Assembly: GCF_008000775.2 (NCBI RefSeq)
Contig: NZ_CP042905.2
Span: 3,625,723-3,649,722 of the forward strand
Length of the DNA: 24,000 nt
Source: Promethearchaeum syntrophicum
Lineage (GTDB): Archaea > Asgardarchaeota > Lokiarchaeia > Sigyniarchaeales > Promethearchaeaceae
Reading direction: 5' to 3'
This document shows, piece after piece, positions 2,411 to 13,760 of the stretch. Made by a program: the position numbers and the translations under genes. Position 1 is the stretch's first letter, and each line of letters opens with the position of its first letter. A model generated the notes under the pieces. It made no database searches, was not told the origin of the DNA, and was given only the letters and a program-made list of their open reading frames with translations.

Positions 2411-3940
2411 TTATTCTTCGACTAAATTTTTCTTTTTGTTTCTATATTCTCTAAACCACGGAATTGCTAATGTGATGGATGTCAAGATCCCCATAAAAAC
2501 AAGATAAAATTGTTGAAATAGTATGTATTTATTAAATTCACCAAAATACATATCTGGGATATTTTCATAAGTCCAATTGCTCAGTACTCTAATTAATATA
2601 TTTGGAATGAATACAAATACATTTAGAAGCAGTGCTCCCAAATAAATATTTTTCTTGAATTTGTGTTCTATGAAAAGCAATCCGAAATTAATGATTCCAA
2701 GTATTATTATTGAGATCGTATAAAATGACCACCCATACATCCAAGACGGAATAATTCCAATTAACTCAATAAAATATATCATTTTGAGATAATTGTCATC
2801 GTTACTCAGTTCTTCTTTTAAATTACTTGAATTTATGAACAATTGAATCAAAGCCATAACTTGGAACATAATAAACACTATCCCACTAAAACTAAAAAGG
2901 ATAGTAAGTTCTGCCCACCTGAAAGGAAAATAAAAAACAAAATCAGATATAGCAAATAAGCTTCCCGAAATAAATATTCCATAGAGAATTAATGGTAAAT
3001 TAATTTTAATTTTGGATGCATTTCTATATTTTACAACGATGACACCAATCACTGCACTTAATATGGTAATAATTAGAAATTGTGTGATAAAACTATAACC
3101 AACAAAAACGGACACAAAATTTCCTACAGTAAAATAGAAAGTGAAGAATAAAAGATTCAATTGATCTTTTTTAGATCCCGAAAGAAGGGAAACTCCAATT
3201 CCCAAACAACTGACTATGAATATCACCAAAAATAAAGCTTGAGGACTTTCTACAATTTTTGTCCCGAGATCAGTTTCTCTCCAATAAGTAAAAGAGAGGA
3301 TTCCCAGAAAACAAAGATATTGAATACCAAATAAAATTACATTTTTACCTTTCTCTTGATCACGGGGTTTAAGGGACAGCCAAATAGAAATTATTGCAAT
3401 AATGATGCTAATTGATAACAGAACATAAAAAATAATTTCGAAGGTATGATTGTATCCCCAAAGAATTCCTACAAGATGTGAAGTGAAAATTAGAATGATA
3501 TCCAGAATTATTATTAGGATAGAAAAAATCATTGAAAACTTAATCTCCTTTCCAGCAACCGAGATGCGATATAAACTTGGTTCGGAGGATTTTTCACTTG
3601 TATCTTCCGCATTCATTCCTGATTTAATTTGAATATTTTTTTGTTCCTTTTTATTTATTCCAATGAGAAACACTATAAGAATTAAAATCAGGGTGACTGC
3701 CATTATAAAAGGAATAAAATCAGCTTGGAAAAAATCAGAGAAAAAATTTGAAATTATTCCCGAAATTGAATCAATTCCCATTGTACTTCCTAAATTATTC
3801 AATTTTACTGTAAGGTATGCAAAAAAAACATAGGGAATAAATATCATCAATAAAAATTGTAAATTTTTCTTAAATTGGATTCTATTTTTTCCTTTTTCTT
3901 CCTGAGTTTGGGAAGCCAGTATGGGTGCTTTCGACGCCAT
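2411..3940 (-). CDS. polytopic membrane protein of unknown family, paralog A
   Basis: Long ORF with more than 12 hydrophobic segments and no motif I recognise. The track start at 3964 is a TTG. ATG at 3940 (MASKAPILASQTQEE...) is preferred because it aligns with the start of the 842..1267 protein and lies about 46 nt after an AATATAAA element. Confidence 0.8.
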   Translation of the reverse strand: MASKAPILASQTQEEKGKNRIQFKKNLQFLLMIFIPYVFFAYLTVKLNNLGSTMGIDSISGIISNFFSDFFQADFIPFIMAVTLILILIVFLIGINKKEQKNIQIKSGMNAEDTSEKSSEPSLYRISVAGKEIKFSMIFSILIIILDIILIFTSHLVGILWGYNHTFEIIFYVLLSISIIIAIISIWLSLKPRDQEKGKNVILFGIQYLCFLGILSFTYWRETDLGTKIVESPQALFLVIFIVSCLGIGVSLLSGSKKDQLNLLFFTFYFTVGNFVSVFVGYSFITQFLIITILSAVIGVIVVKYRNASKIKINLPLILYGIFISGSLFAISDFVFYFPFRWAELTILFSFSGIVFIMFQVMALIQLFINSSNLKEELSNDDNYLKMIYFIELIGIIPSWMYGWSFYTISIIILGIINFGLLFIEHKFKKNIYLGALLLNVFVFIPNILIRVLSNWTYENIPDMYFGEFNKYILFQQFYLVFMGILTSITLAIPWFREYRNKKKNLVEE

Positions 3941-3986
3941 AAATGTATTAAATGAAAACGACAATATAGTTAGATCCCTTTATATT

Positions 3987-4374: not shown

Positions 4375-5901
4375 TTATTCTTCGACTAGATTTTTCTTTT
4401 TGTTTCTATATTCTTTAAACCACGGAATTGCTAATGTGATGGATGTCAAAATCCCCATAATAACAATATAAAATGGTTGATATTCTACGTATTCGTATCC
4501 ACTAAGGTCACTTTCATAGATCCAATTGCTCAATAATATAATTAATATATTTGTAATGAATACAATTAAATTAAGAAGCAACGCTCCCAAATTAATATTT
4601 TTCTTGAATTTATGTTCCGTGAAAAGTAATCCGAAATTAAGGATTCCGAGTATTATTATTGAGATCGTATAAATTGACCACCCTTCCATCCAAGACGGAA
4701 AAATTCCAATTAACTCAATAAAATATAACATTTTAAGATAATTGTCATCGTTACTCAGTTCTTCTTTTAAATTACTTGAATTTATGAACAATTGAATCAA
4801 AGCCATAGCTTGGAACACAATAAACACAATCCCAATAAAAATAAAATGGATGGTAAGTTCTGCACTCCTGAAAGAACTTCCTAAAATAAATTCATAGATA
4901 GCAAAAGAGCTTCCCGAAATAATTAATCCATAGAGAATTAGCGGTAAATTAATTTTAATTTTGGAATTATTTTTATACTTAATAACAATGAAACCAATCA
5001 CTGCACTTAATATGCTAAAAATTAGAAATTGTTTAATATACAGTAAACCGGCATTATATCCAAAAACGGACACAAAATTTCCTACTGTAAAATAGAAACT
5101 GAAGAATAAAATATTCAATTGATCTTTCTTAGATCCCGAAAGAAGGGAAACTCCAATTCCCAGACAACTGACTACAAATATCACCAAAAATAATAATTGA
5201 GGACTTTCTACTATTTTTATTCCATTACCGAAACCAGTTTCACTCCAATAAGTTAAAGAGAGAATTACCAGAAAACAAAGATATTGAATTCCAAATAAAA
5301 TTAAATTTTTACCTTTCTCTTGCTCACGGGGTTTAAGAGAGAGCCAAATAGAAATTATTGCAATAATGATGCTAATTGATAGCAGAATATAAAAAATAAT
5401 TTCGGAAGTTTGATTATATCCCCAAAGAATTCCTACAAGATGTGCAGTGAACATTAGAATGATATCCAGAATCAATATTATTATAGAAAAAATCAGCGAA
5501 AACTTAATCTCCTTTCCAGCAACCGAGATGCGATATAAAATTGGTTCGGCGGATTTTTCACTTGTTTCTTCCGCCTTCATTCCCGATTTAAATTGATTTT
5601 TTTTATGTTCCTTTTTACTTATTACAATGATAAACGCTATAAGAATTAAAATCATGGTGACTGCAATTATATAAGGAAGGAAATCAGCTTGGAAAATATC
5701 AGAGAAAAATCTTGAAATAATTTCCCAAAATGAATCAACTCCCAGTCTATATCCTATATATTTCAATTTTAATGAGAAGTATGCTAGAAAAACATAGGGA
5801 ATAAATATCATCAAAAAAATGTGTAAATTGTTCTTAAATTGAATTTTTGTTTCATTTTCTTCCGAAGTGTGGGAAGCCAGTATGGGTGCTTTCGACGCCA
5901 T
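4375..5901 (-). CDS. polytopic membrane protein of unknown family, paralog B
   Basis: Collinear with paralog A; roughly three quarters of residues look identical by eye, and differences cluster in predicted loops. ATG at 5901 (MASKAPILASHTSEE...) is preferred over the track's TTG at 5925. Confidence 0.8.
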   Translation of the reverse strand: MASKAPILASHTSEENETKIQFKNNLHIFLMIFIPYVFLAYFSLKLKYIGYRLGVDSFWEIISRFFSDIFQADFLPYIIAVTMILILIAFIIVISKKEHKKNQFKSGMKAEETSEKSAEPILYRISVAGKEIKFSLIFSIIILILDIILMFTAHLVGILWGYNQTSEIIFYILLSISIIIAIISIWLSLKPREQEKGKNLILFGIQYLCFLVILSLTYWSETGFGNGIKIVESPQLLFLVIFVVSCLGIGVSLLSGSKKDQLNILFFSFYFTVGNFVSVFGYNAGLLYIKQFLIFSILSAVIGFIVIKYKNNSKIKINLPLILYGLIISGSSFAIYEFILGSSFRSAELTIHFIFIGIVFIVFQAMALIQLFINSSNLKEELSNDDNYLKMLYFIELIGIFPSWMEGWSIYTISIIILGILNFGLLFTEHKFKKNINLGALLLNLIVFITNILIILLSNWIYESDLSGYEYVEYQPFYIVIMGILTSITLAIPWFKEYRNKKKNLVEE

Positions 5902-5947
5902 AAATGTGATAAACGAAAACGACAATATAGTTAGATCCCTTCATATT

Positions 5948-7418: not shown

Positions 7419-8078
7419 TCAAATTAAGAAAGTACAATCTTTAGCATAGAAAAGCAATAATCCACTTTTAAATTTCACTTTTATTGACCCATTTGCTACA
7501 TTACTCAAAGTCAAAGTTGATGAGAGTTCTACAGTTTTATTCTTTAAATCATAATTACTTCCTGTTATTGATACACCAGTGCATTTACTAAATGGGATTA
7601 AAGAAAAAATCGTGTTTGGTTTTAATTCTATGATTGATTCAGAATCAGATTCTAACGCCCATAAAACACCATTAGGGGTTAAAATTTTAATGAAAATTGG
7701 TTTTTTAAATAATAACAATGCATTAAATAGAAAATGATCAAGCCGCGCACCGCTGCTGTTTAGAATTATCATTTCTTGGAATTTTCTTTTCAATGCGAAA
7801 TCAATGGCTAATTCAGTATCAGATTTATCCTTATCACTTTTAAATCTTAAAATTTTATCATTAGAATATTTTTTTAAAATATCGGGCTCAACCGAATCAA
7901 AATCTCCAATTATTTTTGAGATTGGGATTTTAAGTTTATCGCAAATCTCAAGACCCTTATCGATTGCGTAAATCGTGTCTTTTCTCACATCAATTATGTT
8001 TTCTTTAACGAATTTCAAATATTCATAGTTAATTTCTGGTGAACCACTAATTAAGAAAGCTCTTGGATATGATTTCAT
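7419..8078 (-). CDS. thiamine pyrophosphokinase (EC 2.7.6.2, THI80/YloS family)
   Basis: Family signatures appear in order: IGDFDS, KDKSDTELAIDFAL (KDxTDxElA), GARLDH (GgRxDH), then a C-terminal thiamine-binding half with FSLIPF and STLTLSNV. Confidence 0.85.
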   Translation of the reverse strand: MKSYPRAFLISGSPEINYEYLKFVKENIIDVRKDTIYAIDKGLEICDKLKIPISKIIGDFDSVEPDILKKYSNDKILRFKSDKDKSDTELAIDFALKRKFQEMIILNSSGARLDHFLFNALLLFKKPIFIKILTPNGVLWALESDSESIIELKPNTIFSLIPFSKCTGVSITGSNYDLKNKTVELSSTLTLSNVANGSIKVKFKSGLLLFYAKDCTFLI

Positions 8079-8142
8079 CGAATAAAGAAAAAATGAAAAC
8101 CATTTAAAATATCTTATTTTTTAAATCTAATGTGAAAAAAAT

Positions 8143-8529
8143 ATGGAAACAACTAAATCAGTTCTTAGTTCACTCGTGAGTCTGCTTCGAACATATGGTC
8201 ACAGATTGCTTGCAGAATTAACGGATGAAGAAATACATTGGGTACCTTCTCAAACCAGAGGACGTTCCATTTATAGTTATTTCCTCCATTTGATCAATTC
8301 AGAATACTATTGGTTCAAGGATTTTGGTTTTTCAACCCCAGAATACCTTGGGAAAGATGCACCTTTTGACGAGCTTTTGCAGAGTTATAATGATCTGGAG
8401 AACTATCTGATCGAAACGATTCATAATATACCAGATGATCAATTTTTTTTACCTACTAAATTTTTGGAAATTAGTATTTTTAGGAAAAACTATAACATCT
8501 ATTTTTTATTTTATGAAATTGTTACTTAA
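8143..8529 (+). CDS. DinB/YfiT-like helical-bundle protein, possibly degraded at the C-terminus
   Basis: The N-terminal part (LAELTDEEIHWVPSQTRGRSIYSYFLHLINSEYYW) resembles DinB-family helices with His ligands. After a T8 run at 8443-8450 the last 35 aa are low-complexity and lack the usual C-terminal His pair. Confidence 0.4.
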   Translation: METTKSVLSSLVSLLRTYGHRLLAELTDEEIHWVPSQTRGRSIYSYFLHLINSEYYWFKDFGFSTPEYLGKDAPFDELLQSYNDLENYLIETIHNIPDDQFFLPTKFLEISIFRKNYNIYFLFYEIVT

Positions 8530-8546
8530 AGCAAACAAACTTGAAG

Positions 8547-8571
8547 GAAAACTCTTCGGGATGAGTTTTTC
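8547..8571 (+). terminator. hairpin plus T tract after the DinB-like gene
   Basis: GAAAACTC (8547-8554) pairs with GAGTTTT(T)C (8563-8571) around an 8-nt loop, with the T-run at the 3' side, 18 nt after the stop. Confidence 0.45.
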
Positions 8572-8636
8572 GATTTTAAATTAAACTCGAAAGCCATTTA
8601 TAGCATCTCTTTTTTTTATTCACATGTGGAAACACA

Positions 8637-9845
8637 ATGAAAAAAAATTATACTTTTTTATCGATTTTACTATTACTTCTAGTGGTAAGTTCACAGATTT
8701 CAGTAAAAAGTGAAGAAATTCAGAGTGAGACGAAACTAACGATATATACTTATGATTCCCTTCTAGATGATCCTGGTTACGATTTTATAGGAGCGTTTGC
8801 AAATCATTCTGGGATATTGAAGGAAGAAATTAATCTTGTGCTCTTATCAGATGCCAACCAAATTGTAACACAAATGGCGTTGGAAAAGGATAGCCCCGTT
8901 GCAGATGTAGCAATAGGTATTGATAATGTTCTTATCCATAGTGCAAAAAGAGATAATTTGTTAACGCCTTATATCTCCCCTGAATTAGCAAATATATCCT
9001 CAGATTTGATAGATAACCTCGATTCTGAAAAATTTGTTCTACCCTATGATTTTGGTATAATAGCTTTATATTATGATATGAATCGAATAAATTCAACTAC
9101 AAATCCAGAGATTACGAATATAACTTTAGAGGAAATTATTGAGTTCGATTTGGATAAAAAACTAATTGTTGAAGATCCAACTCTGAGTTCACCAGGATTA
9201 GGTTTTCTTCTATGGACGATTGCAATTTATGGTGATCCTACAATTAATTTCAACGGAACCTTAGGTTTAGATTGGCGTGATTGGTGGAAAACAACAAAGG
9301 ATGATTTGAGGATTGCCCCAAGTTGGACCGCAGCTTTTGGGGAATGGTATGAGGGGGAAGAAAATCGCCCAATTATGGTTTCATATGGAACAAGTCCAGC
9401 ATATAGTGCTTGTCAATATAATGATACATCTCAAGGCGCCTTTTTATCTCATGAAAATGGAACGCAAAACGGATGGTTACAAATCGAAGGAATTGGGCTC
9501 GTGAATAACGCCCCTCATGAAGATCTTGCCAAGAATTTTATAGATTGGTTCTTAAGTAAAGAACTCCAAGACAACATTGCGGAAAATAATTGGATGTATC
9601 CCGCAAATGATTACGCTGAAATCTCAACTAGGTTTAATGAATCATCAATTAATCCCGATGATGTTAACATTTTAAATTCACTAATATCTTCGGAAACAAT
9701 AGGAACAAATCTCGAGATGTGGAAGGGAGATTGGGAAACCATTATAAGTTCAGACCTTAACATTAGCGGATATAGTTCAATTTTCTTCATTTTTGCTTCA
9801 ATAGGAGCAATAGCGTATATACAAAAGAAAATAAAGAGAAATTAG
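8637..9845 (+). CDS. thiB: thiamine ABC transporter substrate-binding protein (ThiB/TbpA family), membrane-anchored
   Basis: Blocks shared with E. coli ThiB as recalled from memory: LTIYTYDSL, ADVAIGIDNVL, LPYDFGIIALYYD, DPTLSSPGLGFLLW, MVSYGTSPAY, NNWMYPAN. There is an N-terminal signal-like segment and a C-terminal hydrophobic helix followed by KKIKRN. Confidence 0.85.
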   Translation: MKKNYTFLSILLLLLVVSSQISVKSEEIQSETKLTIYTYDSLLDDPGYDFIGAFANHSGILKEEINLVLLSDANQIVTQMALEKDSPVADVAIGIDNVLIHSAKRDNLLTPYISPELANISSDLIDNLDSEKFVLPYDFGIIALYYDMNRINSTTNPEITNITLEEIIEFDLDKKLIVEDPTLSSPGLGFLLWTIAIYGDPTINFNGTLGLDWRDWWKTTKDDLRIAPSWTAAFGEWYEGEENRPIMVSYGTSPAYSACQYNDTSQGAFLSHENGTQNGWLQIEGIGLVNNAPHEDLAKNFIDWFLSKELQDNIAENNWMYPANDYAEISTRFNESSINPDDVNILNSLISSETIGTNLEMWKGDWETIISSDLNISGYSSIFFIFASIGAIAYIQKKIKRN

Positions 9846-9886
9846 AAAAATCGAAAATAAGAAAATCTAAAGGTTAAAATTAATAC

Positions 9887-11629
9887 ATGAAAAATTCAAA
9901 GCCGAATTCGAAAATTAAGACTGAAGGCTTATTAAATAAGCTGATTGTAGGGATAGTTATTACAGCCTTAATTTCTTTTTTACTCACTTTTTTTTATTTA
10001 CCAATTGTTAAAATCTTAAATTTTGCGTTAATTCAAGAGGGTTCATTCACATTCGATATTTTTTGGTCGACTCTCACTTCTTCATTAAATCTTAATGCTA
10101 TTGCCTTTACTTTTATTCAATCACTACTTACGACATTTATTTGTATGTTTTTAGGATTTCCAGTCTCATTTTTTTTAGCTAAATATTCCTTTAAAGGGAG
10201 AAAATTGATAATAAATCTATTAACTGTTCCGTTTGTGTTACCATCAATTGTAGTTTTACTCGGTTTTATAATTTTATACGGTGAAGGAGGTTTTATCAAC
10301 CAAATTTGGATAAATATTGCTGGAGTGCCTTTAATCAATTTGTACGGAAGTATTGAAGGCATTGTACTTGCTCATTCCTTTTATAATATTTCAGTAATAA
10401 TCCGAATGATGATCCCAGCTTGGGAAAATCTTGATCCGAATTTAACTGAAATTTCCAAGACACTTGGAGGAAAAAACTGGATGATATTCTGGAAAATTAT
10501 GTTTCCCCAAATCAAAAACTACCTGATCTCAGCCGGTTTGTTGGTATTTACCTACACTTTCAACAGCTTTGCTCTTGTCTTGTATCTTGGTGAAGTAAAA
10601 TTCCAAACCTTGGAAGTAAGAATTTTTAAACTGATGAGGAATACTTTAGATTTTCCTGCAGGGGCATCTTTAGGAATTTTACAACTGTTTTTTAATTTAA
10701 TCATAATAATTCTCTATATAATTTTTGAAAAGAAAACTAGGGCCATGGCTTCTGGAAAAGATAACATATATCACCATGAAAAAATTGTTTTTTTAAAATC
10801 AAACTGGAAAAAAACTTTAGGAGAAATAATCCTCATAATTTTTACAATTCTCATAATTCTTTTCTCAATTTCACCTATGATTGCAGTTTTCATTACTTCT
10901 CTTACTCCGAATACCTTAGGTGGTTCTCCATTTTGGGGATATACAAGTTTATTATCAAATGATTATGATACTCTACTTGGAGCACCTCCTTCAAGATTAC
11001 TTCTAAATACATTAACATTTGCCTTTCTAACCACATTAATTACTTTGATTTTCTCAATCGGAATTGTTTTTATACTCAGAAATCGCTTGCAGCGCGTAAA
11101 TAATTATAAAAAATCAGTTATTGAAAACATAATATCACTAGCAATTATTCTACCAATGGGTACTTCATCGATTACATTAGCAATGGGGTTATTTCTTCAA
11201 CTGAAAGATAGTGCCGTTTTTAAAAATTATGTGTGGATATTAATTGTTCTCGCTCATGTTTTAATTAGCGTCCCCTTTGCAACGAGATCTATTTTATCAG
11301 CCTACAATCGAATTGATACTGATTTGCTTAATATTGCTTCTACGTTGGGGGCATCCAGATTAAGAATATTTTGGAAGGTAGAATTGCCCATGATAAAATC
11401 AGGGTTAATAGTTGCAGGAATTTTTTCATTTGCTATAAGTCTTGGTGAGTTTGGTGCCACCAATTTCTTAGCTCGGGCAGAATACGGGACATTATCATTA
11501 GGAATTTCAAAATTATTATCTTCACGAACAATGCAACTCCCGGCTTCAATGGCTAGCATTTTAATCATCGTAACTTTTATTTGCTTTTTTTTAATTCAAA
11601 AAACAGGAGAAAAAGATTTGAAATTTTAA
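9887..11629 (+). CDS. thiP: thiamine ABC transporter permease, two fused transmembrane domains (ThiP type)
   Basis: 580 aa with two EAA-loop-like segments (LTEISKTLGGKNWMIFWKIMFPQIK and LLNIASTLGASRLRIFWKVELPMIKSG), each inside a 6-TM half. It lies directly downstream of thiB. Confidence 0.8.
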   Translation: MKNSKPNSKIKTEGLLNKLIVGIVITALISFLLTFFYLPIVKILNFALIQEGSFTFDIFWSTLTSSLNLNAIAFTFIQSLLTTFICMFLGFPVSFFLAKYSFKGRKLIINLLTVPFVLPSIVVLLGFIILYGEGGFINQIWINIAGVPLINLYGSIEGIVLAHSFYNISVIIRMMIPAWENLDPNLTEISKTLGGKNWMIFWKIMFPQIKNYLISAGLLVFTYTFNSFALVLYLGEVKFQTLEVRIFKLMRNTLDFPAGASLGILQLFFNLIIIILYIIFEKKTRAMASGKDNIYHHEKIVFLKSNWKKTLGEIILIIFTILIILFSISPMIAVFITSLTPNTLGGSPFWGYTSLLSNDYDTLLGAPPSRLLLNTLTFAFLTTLITLIFSIGIVFILRNRLQRVNNYKKSVIENIISLAIILPMGTSSITLAMGLFLQLKDSAVFKNYVWILIVLAHVLISVPFATRSILSAYNRIDTDLLNIASTLGASRLRIFWKVELPMIKSGLIVAGIFSFAISLGEFGATNFLARAEYGTLSLGISKLLSSRTMQLPASMASILIIVTFICFFLIQKTGEKDLKF

Positions 11630-11660
11630 AATTCAAATTATCACAGAATGTGTTGCTAAC

Positions 11661-12764
11661 ATGACCTACTTAAAACTTCAGAATATTCACATGAAATACC
11701 AAAATGAATTGATAATTAATGATCTTAATTTAAATGTTGAACGCGGAGAACTTTTAATCCTATTAGGCTCAAGTGGATGTGGAAAAACAACATTACTCAA
11801 AATTATTGCAGGTTTAATTCACCCTGAACAAGGTTTAATTATGATTGAAGATCAAGATATTACAAATTTTTCTCCACAAAAAAGAGAAATTGGTTATGTC
11901 CCTCAGTCCCAAGTTCTATTTCCCCACCTAAACATCAAGGAAAATATTGCATTTGGACTTCGCGCTAGAAATAAAGAAAATTCTAAAGAAGAAATTGAGC
12001 AAAAAATCCAAGAAGTTGCTAAATTAGCTCAAATCGAAGATATTTTATCTCGTTTTCCAAGTGAAATTAGTGGAGGGCAAAAACAGCGAGTTGCCCTAGC
12101 TAGAGCTATAGTTATAAATCCAAGATTACTTTTACTTGATGAACCCTTATCAAGTATTGATGCAAACGGTCGCGAATCCTTAGCATTAATGATAAAACGA
12201 ATCCAAAGAGAAACAAAAACAACTACAATTTATGTCACACACAATCAACAAGAAGCTCGTTTGATTGCTGATAAAGTTGCTATAATGTATGATGGGATAA
12301 TACAACAATCAGGAACCATGACAGATATCGATATCCATCCGATGAATTTCCAGATCGCTAACATAATTGGAAAACTCAATATTTGGAAAGTATATTCGCA
12401 AAAATTTGAACAAGGACAGCTAATTATTTCGAGTCCTCTCGGTGATATAACAATTGCTTCTAAAGAAGAGAAAAAAATAGCAGGAATTCAAATTCACCCC
12501 AGTAAAATCAAAATAGCTAATGAAAATGAAAACTTCGACATGAAATTCTCAGAGCAGATTTTAGTAATTAAAGGGAAAATAATCTCCATTATTCAATTAA
12601 AAAGTAAAATATTTCAAATAATTATCCAAATCAATGAAAATCAATTAACTAAGCCATTTATCTACATCAAAATGCAATTGCTGGATCAAAATTTAATTAA
12701 AAATCTAACAATTAACCAAGATATTAAACTTAAAATAGATCCAAAGGATATAATTCTTTTTTGA
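11661..12764 (+). CDS. thiQ: ABC transporter ATP-binding protein with a C-terminal beta-rich extension
   Basis: Walker A GSSGCGKTT, Q-loop VPQS, signature SGGQKQRVALARA, Walker B LLLLDEP, H-loop VTHNQ. About 130 extra C-terminal residues resemble a TOBE-like regulatory domain, as in PotA/FbpC-type ATPases. The thiQ name rests on operon context only. Confidence 0.8.
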   Translation: MTYLKLQNIHMKYQNELIINDLNLNVERGELLILLGSSGCGKTTLLKIIAGLIHPEQGLIMIEDQDITNFSPQKREIGYVPQSQVLFPHLNIKENIAFGLRARNKENSKEEIEQKIQEVAKLAQIEDILSRFPSEISGGQKQRVALARAIVINPRLLLLDEPLSSIDANGRESLALMIKRIQRETKTTTIYVTHNQQEARLIADKVAIMYDGIIQQSGTMTDIDIHPMNFQIANIIGKLNIWKVYSQKFEQGQLIISSPLGDITIASKEEKKIAGIQIHPSKIKIANENENFDMKFSEQILVIKGKIISIIQLKSKIFQIIIQINENQLTKPFIYIKMQLLDQNLIKNLTINQDIKLKIDPKDIILF

Positions 12765-12807: not shown

Positions 12808-13539
12808 CTAAATTGCTAAATTCTTGAGTCTTTGTTGAAGATCTTCTAAAAACGGTTTATAATAATCCTGAGTTTCAGATAATTTTTCTATTTGAAGTAA
12901 CGATCTATCGTAAGCCCATTTTACTTTATCTAAAAGACCCATTTCCTCGTAATTTAAACCCAAGTAATAAAATGCCAATGGATAATTAAAGTCGATTTTG
13001 ACAAGTTTCATTAATTGTTGTATCGCCTGTCCATGTTTCTTCAGTTTATAAAATGCATAGGCCAAAAAAAATAGAATTTTTGGATATCGGGGGTCCCTAT
13101 TAGCAAATTTGTAGATGTCAATCATATCCCAAAGTAAATTGAGCGCCTCCGTATATTTCTCCACGGAAATTAATTTTTCCATACGTTCAAATTTCTCCAA
13201 ATACTCTGGATCTTCTTCTTGGGATGCTTGTTTCAATTTTTCTTTTTTTGCTTGGAGTTCCTGCTCTCGTTTCTCCGCTTCTTTACGATCTTTTTCCAGT
13301 TGCTCCAAATATTCATTAAATACATTAATAACGTGGGTATCGTACTCCTCAAAACATAAAGGGCACTTTGTACTATGAGAAATCCACTTTTTTAAACACT
13401 CATAATGAACTAAGTGCCCATTCGGGCAACCAACAAAATTTTTTGTAACATGTTCCCTTCCAAAATGTGATAAATCAATCGGTCCATGGCAAATGCAGCA
13501 TTGCATAACTTTGGCATTGGAAGTATCAAGTTTACCCAT
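12808..13539 (-). CDS. RING-H2 zinc finger protein with coiled-coil and TPR-like C-terminal region
   Basis: C14-x2-C17-x20-C38-x3-H42-x2-H45-x2-C48-x10-C59-x2-C62 fits the RING-H2 spacing exactly. The HYECLKKWISHSTKCPLC stretch mirrors the canonical HxxCIxxWLxxxxxCPLC signature. An E/K-rich heptad region follows, then 2-3 TPR-like helical pairs. Confidence 0.8.
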   Translation of the reverse strand: MGKLDTSNAKVMQCCICHGPIDLSHFGREHVTKNFVGCPNGHLVHYECLKKWISHSTKCPLCFEEYDTHVINVFNEYLEQLEKDRKEAEKREQELQAKKEKLKQASQEEDPEYLEKFERMEKLISVEKYTEALNLLWDMIDIYKFANRDPRYPKILFFLAYAFYKLKKHGQAIQQLMKLVKIDFNYPLAFYYLGLNYEEMGLLDKVKWAYDRSLLQIEKLSETQDYYKPFLEDLQQRLKNLAI

Positions 13540-13662: not shown

Positions 13663-13760
13663 AGGTCCGTCGTCTAGCCTGGATATGGCGCTGGGTTGCG
13701 ATCCATAACGTAATTGTGGCAAACACCCAGTTTTCGAGGGTTCAACTCCCCCCGGACCTA
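13663..13760 (+). tRNA. tRNA-Arg(GCG) with a 23-nt intron at the canonical 37/38 position
   Basis: Hand fold. Acceptor AGGTCCG/CGGACCT (7 bp). D arm GTCT-AGCCTGGATA-TGGC. Anticodon stem CTGGG/CCCAG. Loop TT-GCG-A, then the intron (13702-13724), then A. T arm GAGGG-TTCAACT-CCCCC with one A:C mismatch. Discriminator A; no encoded CCA. TTGC (13696-99) pairs with GCAA (13719-22), flanked by two 3-nt bulges that hold both splice sites, which is a BHB motif. A T5 run follows at 13772-13776. The segment is a GC-rich island in AT-rich DNA. Confidence 0.8.

Follow-up and report, generated by a model that had tools for sequence, protein, structure and literature searches.

The RING-TPR gene lies on the closed chromosome (4,324,194 bp; 4.32 Mb) of an Asgard archaeon of the Promethearchaeota/Lokiarchaeia type. 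We analysed it within a stretch of 24,000 nucleotides, hereafter the window, which corresponds to C1:3625723-3649722 of the single-contig genome (about 30% GC). The features of the gene and its surroundings are listed in Table 1.

Table 1. Features of the RING-TPR gene and its neighbourhood (window coordinates).
Feature	Position	Strand	Remarks
RING-H2 / charged helix / TPR gene	12808..13539	-	243 aa, ATG start (ORF listing)
RING-H2 finger, residues 14-62	13354..13500	-	ligands C14, C17, C38, H42, H45, C48, C59, C62
Amphipathic helix after the RING, residues 66-81	13297..13344	-	Y66, V70, I71, V73/F74, Y77/L78, L81
E/K/R-rich helical linker, residues 82-107	13219..13296	-	long single helix in the AF2 model, pLDDT about 60-82
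Three TPR repeats and C-terminal capping helix, residues 111-242	12814..13209	-	Pfam TPR_11, AF2
Thiamine importer and diphosphokinase region	7419-12764		related thiamine loci: L026, L034-L052, L057-L059
Neighbours of the RING-TPR gene			thiamine diphosphokinase, ABC importer, alpha/beta hydrolase, metallo-beta-lactamase-fold (MBL) hydrolase, tRNA
Further neighbours			archaeal ribosomal protein genes S7, S12 and L7Ae

The binding protein of the adjoining ABC importer passes the NCBIfam thiamine-SBP model TIGR01254. A tRNA gene of about 98 nt with an intron, at 13663-13760 (+), is oriented divergently from the RING gene; its anticodon loop has an insert of about 25 nt, and the anticodon was read as GCG (Arg). 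It scored 35.4 bits with Infernal and was missed by ARAGORN and by an Rfam gathering run with default filters. The orthologue in locus L026 also has a tRNA upstream. Elsewhere in the window, two adjacent ORFs of about 517 aa each, at 2411-3964 (-) and 4375-5925 (-), gave no Pfam match at E <= 1e-5, and genes for a TPR protein and an LRR protein are located near them.

Eukaryotic contamination is excluded as the origin of the gene, since the chromosome is closed and archaeal and the gene is located beside archaeal ribosomal protein genes (S7, S12 and L7Ae); the eukaryotic or contaminant contig that the earlier note had allowed for was thus not found. Synteny around the gene is kept in more than 140 archaeal genomes, homologues recovered by a word search came from Promethearchaeota metagenomes, and the ESM Atlas cluster of the protein is 100% Archaea.

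Read directly from the ORF, residues 14-62 give the motif C14-x2-C17-x20-C38-x3-H42-x2-H45-x2-C48-x10-C59-x2-C62 (C3H2C3), exactly as described in the earlier note. Residues 45-62 read HYECLKKWISHSTKCPLC, and the letters previously given for the stretch with the conserved Trp were also exact. The ligand spacing of 2/20/3/2/2/10/2 agrees with the RING-H2 consensus, C-x2-C-x(9-39)-C-x(1-3)-H-x(2-3)-H-x2-C-x(4-48)-C-x2-C. Genome-wide, this pattern matched 1 of 6309 open frames of at least 80 aa, namely the RING-TPR gene, and it had no match in 20 residue shuffles of all 6309 frames. The eight ligands, W52, P60 and H18 are invariant in 17 full-length homologues and I16 is near-invariant, while 24 RING segments from two taxonomic families share the eight ligands and N40 without exception and vary by up to 18 residues in the length of the first loop. 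The hydrophobic E2-binding residues of active RINGs (Ile or Val between the first two Cys ligands, Trp after the sixth ligand and Pro after the seventh) are all present; the corresponding I16, W52 and P60, which form the putative E2-binding face, are invariant or at least 90% conserved in homologues down to 35% identity.

Against the Pfam model zf-RING_2 (PF13639) the protein scored 22.6 bits (E 1.3e-4), below the curated cut-off of 27.3 bits, which is passed by orthologues with a shorter first loop (34.3 and 27.8 bits). A family profile restricted to the RING retrieved 48 matches from the PDB at E <= 0.01, every one of them a RING E3 ligase, with Hrd1 (2.5e-8), RNF165/ARK2C (2e-7) and Arkadia among the best. 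A Foldseek search with the whole protein was uninformative about the RING because the TPR half dominated the matches, and residues 6-74 were therefore modelled alone with AlphaFold (AF2; pLDDT 78). The resulting model superposed on the RINGs of RNF165, EL5 and RNF146, and a non-RING fold was not seen. Foldseek aligned it to RNF165 with a TM score of 0.71-0.75 and an rmsd of 2.1 Å and gave a probability of 1.00 for RNF165, TRAF6, gp78 and Rbx1; the 50 Foldseek matches listed all belong to RING domains, U-box domains or closely RING-like zinc fingers. VIA-align yielded Z scores of 6.0-6.5 to the RNF146, RNF165 and EL5 RINGs; the matches listed are nearly all RING-type domains, aligned over 49-57 residues with Z scores of 5-6.5. 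Taken together, the profile and fold evidence supported a predicted RING cross-brace for the Cys/His set and disfavoured zinc ribbons, in line with the earlier designation of the finger as a cross-brace RING-H2 and not a simple zinc ribbon.

The finger had also been called canonical, which holds for motif and predicted fold but is slightly generous in view of the sub-threshold Pfam score, the maximal x3 spacing and the lack of a basic linchpin. Compared with Hrd1, the distance between the third ligand (C38) and His42 is two residues greater, which puts the C-x3-H spacing at the limit of the consensus, and in the HMMER alignment the invariant N40 falls in the column of the third Cys of Hrd1. 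Directly after the last Cys, where an active RING is expected to carry a basic linchpin, the protein has F63 and its homologues have A, H, S, N, T, G or Q; Arg or Lys was absent from this position in all family members compared (17 full-length sequences and 24 RING segments). In the RING E3 of Caldiarchaeum the linchpin is Arg69 and the R69A mutant is impaired, as are the I30Q and W58A mutants, so that the equivalents of the Ile and the Trp are needed for activity (PMC5654768). Other RINGs of the genome that hosts the RING-TPR gene vary too; a 190-aa protein encoded at C1:137316 has CPICK and another has CPVCM. Since a basic linchpin is also missing from other RINGs of the host genome, its absence is not diagnostic of inactivity.

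In the segment that follows the RING, the columns of residues 66-81 named in Table 1 are 82-100% hydrophobic in 17 homologues, have an a/d-like spacing and are helical in the AF2 models; we infer only that the segment could pack against the RING or dimerise. The AlphaFold model contains one helix from about residue 68 to 107. Residues 75-107 consist to about 70% of E, K, R, D and Q. Residues 82-107 are about 70% charged or polar, the share in the alignment columns being 70-100%, and L95 is the only well-conserved hydrophobic position among them. These features do not establish a coiled coil; a stiff single helix of the ER/K type is at least as likely. The earlier description gave an E/K-rich coiled coil about 60 aa long, of which there remains a mostly E/K-rich helix with a length of about 40 aa.

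The TPR-like repeats of that description were recovered as a TPR_11 match at the Pfam threshold (26.9 bits against a cut-off of 26.8) and as seven helices, three pairs and a cap, in the AF2 model of residues 111-242 (pLDDT 92-98), which thus combine a profile match with a predicted helix-pair solenoid. The top Foldseek matches were three-TPR domains of the SGT, RPAP3, CHIP and Hop type (TM 0.7-0.8), and an NCBIfam scan of the protein gave weak TPR and coiled-coil noise and nothing else. The most conserved stretch of the whole protein is 175-212, with L176-L179, P187, L188, F190-Y192, G194, K205, W208, A209 and R212 invariant, and this sequence conservation points to a putative conserved binding partner. 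Helix A of TPR3 (residues 189-200, AFYYLGLNYEEM) has no Lys or Arg and its invariant residues are aromatic or aliphatic. Since the helix lacks a basic residue, the two-carboxylate clamp for EEVD found in chaperone-binding TPRs of the CHIP type is absent.

Annotation of the window confirmed that it contains no ubiquitin, E1 or E2 gene. No ubiquitin-system gene was linked to the RING-TPR gene in this or 35 related loci, and the locus does not have the layout of the operon-type archaeal cassettes, in which the RING gene adjoins ubiquitin, E1 or E2 genes. A search of the genome for Ub-like, E1-like, E2-like and JAMM genes found all four elsewhere on the chromosome. The single canonical E2 (UQ_con, 84 bits) has the HPN motif, the catalytic Cys and the YPF and TPS loops, and the ubiquitin gene (L013:1444-1695) encodes 83 aa that end exactly in Gly-Gly without a pro-peptide. 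The loops of the E2, which is encoded at L011:1477-1995 and given on the chromosome as C1:500252-500671, are of the RING-binding type, and the ubiquitin and E2 genes are both located far from any E1 or E3 gene. The host genome further encodes five ThiF-family/E1-like proteins, two of which are long, four JAB (JAMM) proteins and several other RING proteins, and an E2 is present in 152 of 154 genomes of the order carrying the RING-TPR family. A 553-aa ORF at C1:1594996-1595781 represents the E1 of eukaryote type. Action in trans, as suggested in the earlier note, is plausible because ubiquitin, E2, E1-like and JAMM genes are available elsewhere in the genome.

To delimit the family, we collected 22 homologues with 36-97% identity in the word search and scanned 1.84 billion representatives with HMMER, which returned 33 matches at E <= 1e-30; by this count the family is small. 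In a survey of 400 genomes from the phylum, full-length members occurred in 13 of 13 genomes of the host's own family (f1) and in 128 of 135 genomes of a sister family (f3) in the same order, and genomes outside the order gave weak single-domain matches only, with one contig-edge match as the exception. On these sequence matches, the RING-TPR family is limited to one Asgard order, bar this exception. The exception is a strong full-family match (1.8e-48) at G073:C309:1-570, at the very edge of a contig in a genome from a different family of the phylum. Instead of marking a genuine occurrence beyond the order, it may stem from faulty binning.

In one genus of the host's own family, the orthologue is a longer protein of 570-699 aa (L029:1492-3591 (-), L030:214-2241 (+) and L031:478-2190 (+)). 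In the two longest forms (L029 and L030), the RING-helix-TPR part is preceded by an extra N-terminal RING, in which the Trp is replaced by Arg, and by about 380 residues without a Pfam match. A similar extension is present in the 570-aa form (L031), where no RING motif could be identified. Across the longer fused members of the family, the 200-450 additional residues were without a Pfam match.

We also compared the gene neighbourhoods. In the sister family, a gene for ThiDN, ThiN or a ThiD-like kinase is located directly downstream of the RING-TPR gene in all 19 sampled loci; in most of them ThiDN or ThiN is on the same strand after a gap of 24-84 nt, with ThiC beyond it and a Ras-family GTPase gene divergent upstream. 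Four to five genera of the host's own family have ThiDN or ThiN downstream, on the same strand in four, two of which have ThiC beyond. In 3 of 3 genomes checked, the only ThiN gene is the neighbour of the RING-TPR gene. Three closed genomes without ThiN, including the host, have at this place instead a convergent thiamine ABC importer and a thiamine diphosphokinase, which looks like an in-place replacement of thiamine synthesis by import and salvage, the RING-TPR gene remaining as the constant neighbour. No thiamine gene was found within 4 kb in a third family (f2; L054), and Rfam scans of the window and of 20 related loci detected neither a TPP riboswitch nor any other cis element.

Among eukaryotic RING-H2 E3s, the protein shares the C3H2C3 order and the predicted fold with Hrd1/synoviolin, Arkadia/RNF165 (ARK2C), EL5, RNF38 and gp78, and with them also the E2-face residues C-x-I-C, W and C-P-x-C; Hrd1 is the best match in sequence (E 2.5e-8) and RNF165 the best Foldseek match in fold (rmsd 2.1 Å). 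It differs from these proteins in the C-x3-H spacing of the third ligand, the invariant Asn in place of the Cys of Hrd1, the lack of an Arg linchpin and of a membrane domain, and the placement of the RING at the N-terminus, ahead of the TPRs. Like the RING-TPR protein, the srfp protein of Caldiarchaeum subterraneum and the Helarchaeia RING E3 are RING-H2 proteins from archaea that conserve the Ile and Trp contacts to E2, and all of the hosts encode a eukaryote-like E1, E2 and ubiquitin. These two are small, have an Arg or Lys linchpin and are encoded in Ub/E1/E2 or ESCRT operons, whereas the RING-TPR protein has a TPR arm, no linchpin and a thiamine locus far from the ubiquitin genes. CHIP/STUB1 (TPR, helical hairpin, U-box) likewise combines a three-repeat TPR with a long helix and an E2-binding domain of RING fold; its TPR is among the top Foldseek matches, and the cluster of CHIP appears as a weak neighbour in a language-model comparison (score 0.87), which we take as no more than a lead. 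In CHIP, however, the domain order is reversed, the E2-binding domain is a U-box instead of a zinc RING and the TPR has the EEVD clamp, and the likeness rests on the shared domains, with homology not shown beyond them.

Our preferred reading is that the protein is probably a soluble RING-H2 E3 ubiquitin-ligase candidate that would recruit a substrate and act in trans. The N-terminal RING would bind two zinc ions in a cross-brace, with C14/C17/H45/C48 as site 1 and C38/H42/C59/C62 as site 2, and would use the Ile16/Trp52/Pro60 face to dock the single canonical E2~Ub of the genome. With the stiff charged helix as a spacer of about 4 nm, the three-repeat TPR domain would recruit the substrate or a partner, and E1, E2 and ubiquitin would be supplied in trans from dispersed genes. 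The arrangement of RING, charged helix and TPR supports the E3-plus-substrate-adaptor architecture proposed before, the zinc and E2 binding, the ligase activity and the substrate being predicted in each case.

The main rival, which we regard as unlikely though a serious contender, is that the RING is non-catalytic and does not itself activate E2~Ub, the protein binding its partners either as a TPR scaffold or adaptor stabilised by zinc or, like BARD1, Bmi1 and MdmX, as the inactive half of a RING pair. The lack of a basic linchpin throughout the family would fit such a role, as would the higher conservation of the TPR half compared with the non-ligand residues of the RING, the lack of linkage to ubiquitin genes and the genus whose fused forms carry two RINGs per chain, reminiscent of RING pairs. 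Yet inactive partner RINGs often lose the E2-contact residues, and Ile16, Trp52 and Pro60 are kept here; the linchpin argument is weakened by its absence from other RINGs of the genome. Far less probable, and hardly to be reconciled with the matches obtained, is that the domain is not a RING at all but a pair of independent zinc ribbons or a different treble-clef fold, or that the gene is a eukaryotic contaminant. Pairs of C-x2-C are common in zinc ribbons and would fit that fold too, and the copy in the window is below the Pfam RING cut-off, but all 48 PDB profile matches are RING E3s, the Foldseek and nearly all VIA matches listed are to RING, U-box or RING-like domains, and the closed archaeal chromosome, the adjacent S7, S12 and L7Ae genes and the synteny in more than 140 archaeal genomes speak against contamination.

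A further alternative, which we hold to be improbable, is a RING/TPR regulator dedicated to thiamine homeostasis that marks or binds the thiamine enzymes or the importer, with or without ubiquitin. It would account for the run of ThiDN or ThiN and then ThiC downstream in all 19 sister-family loci and in genera of the host's own family, for the sole ThiN gene of the three genomes checked being the neighbour of the RING-TPR gene and for the importer and diphosphokinase at the same position in the three closed genomes without ThiN. Adjacency among relatives can, however, be inherited synteny, and in the host the gene is convergent to the importer and not co-transcribed with it; the thiamine-free surroundings in f2 and the lack of a TPP riboswitch in the window and 20 related loci also count against it. 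That the association reflects a functional link rather than inherited synteny is improbable in our estimate. The same low expectation applies to the more specific proposal of an archaeal E3 bound to the thiamine locus, in which the TPR arm would recognise ThiDN or ThiC or, after the swap to import, ThiBPQ.

Under the preferred reading of a candidate E3 acting in trans, the protein most likely adds a further member to a kind of RING E3 already known in Asgard archaea from the reconstitution of archaeal E1/E2/RING cascades, namely that of Caldiarchaeum (PMC5654768) and, in vitro, the Asgard cascade from a Helarchaeia operon (bioRxiv 10.1101/2023.07.25.550441). A whole Asgard order would thus keep a candidate-E3 layout of two modules, a RING and a substrate-binding repeat domain on a rigid spacer. 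To our knowledge, the archaeal E3s tested so far are minimal RING proteins encoded in operons. The combination of a RING with a separate substrate-binding module is a design principle of most eukaryotic RING ligases, and in eukaryotes ubiquitin drives the down-regulation of nutrient transporters. The fixed neighbourhood of thiamine genes offers a concrete set of candidate substrates, and if the thiamine proposal were true, it would mean ubiquitin-dependent control of vitamin supply in a prokaryote.
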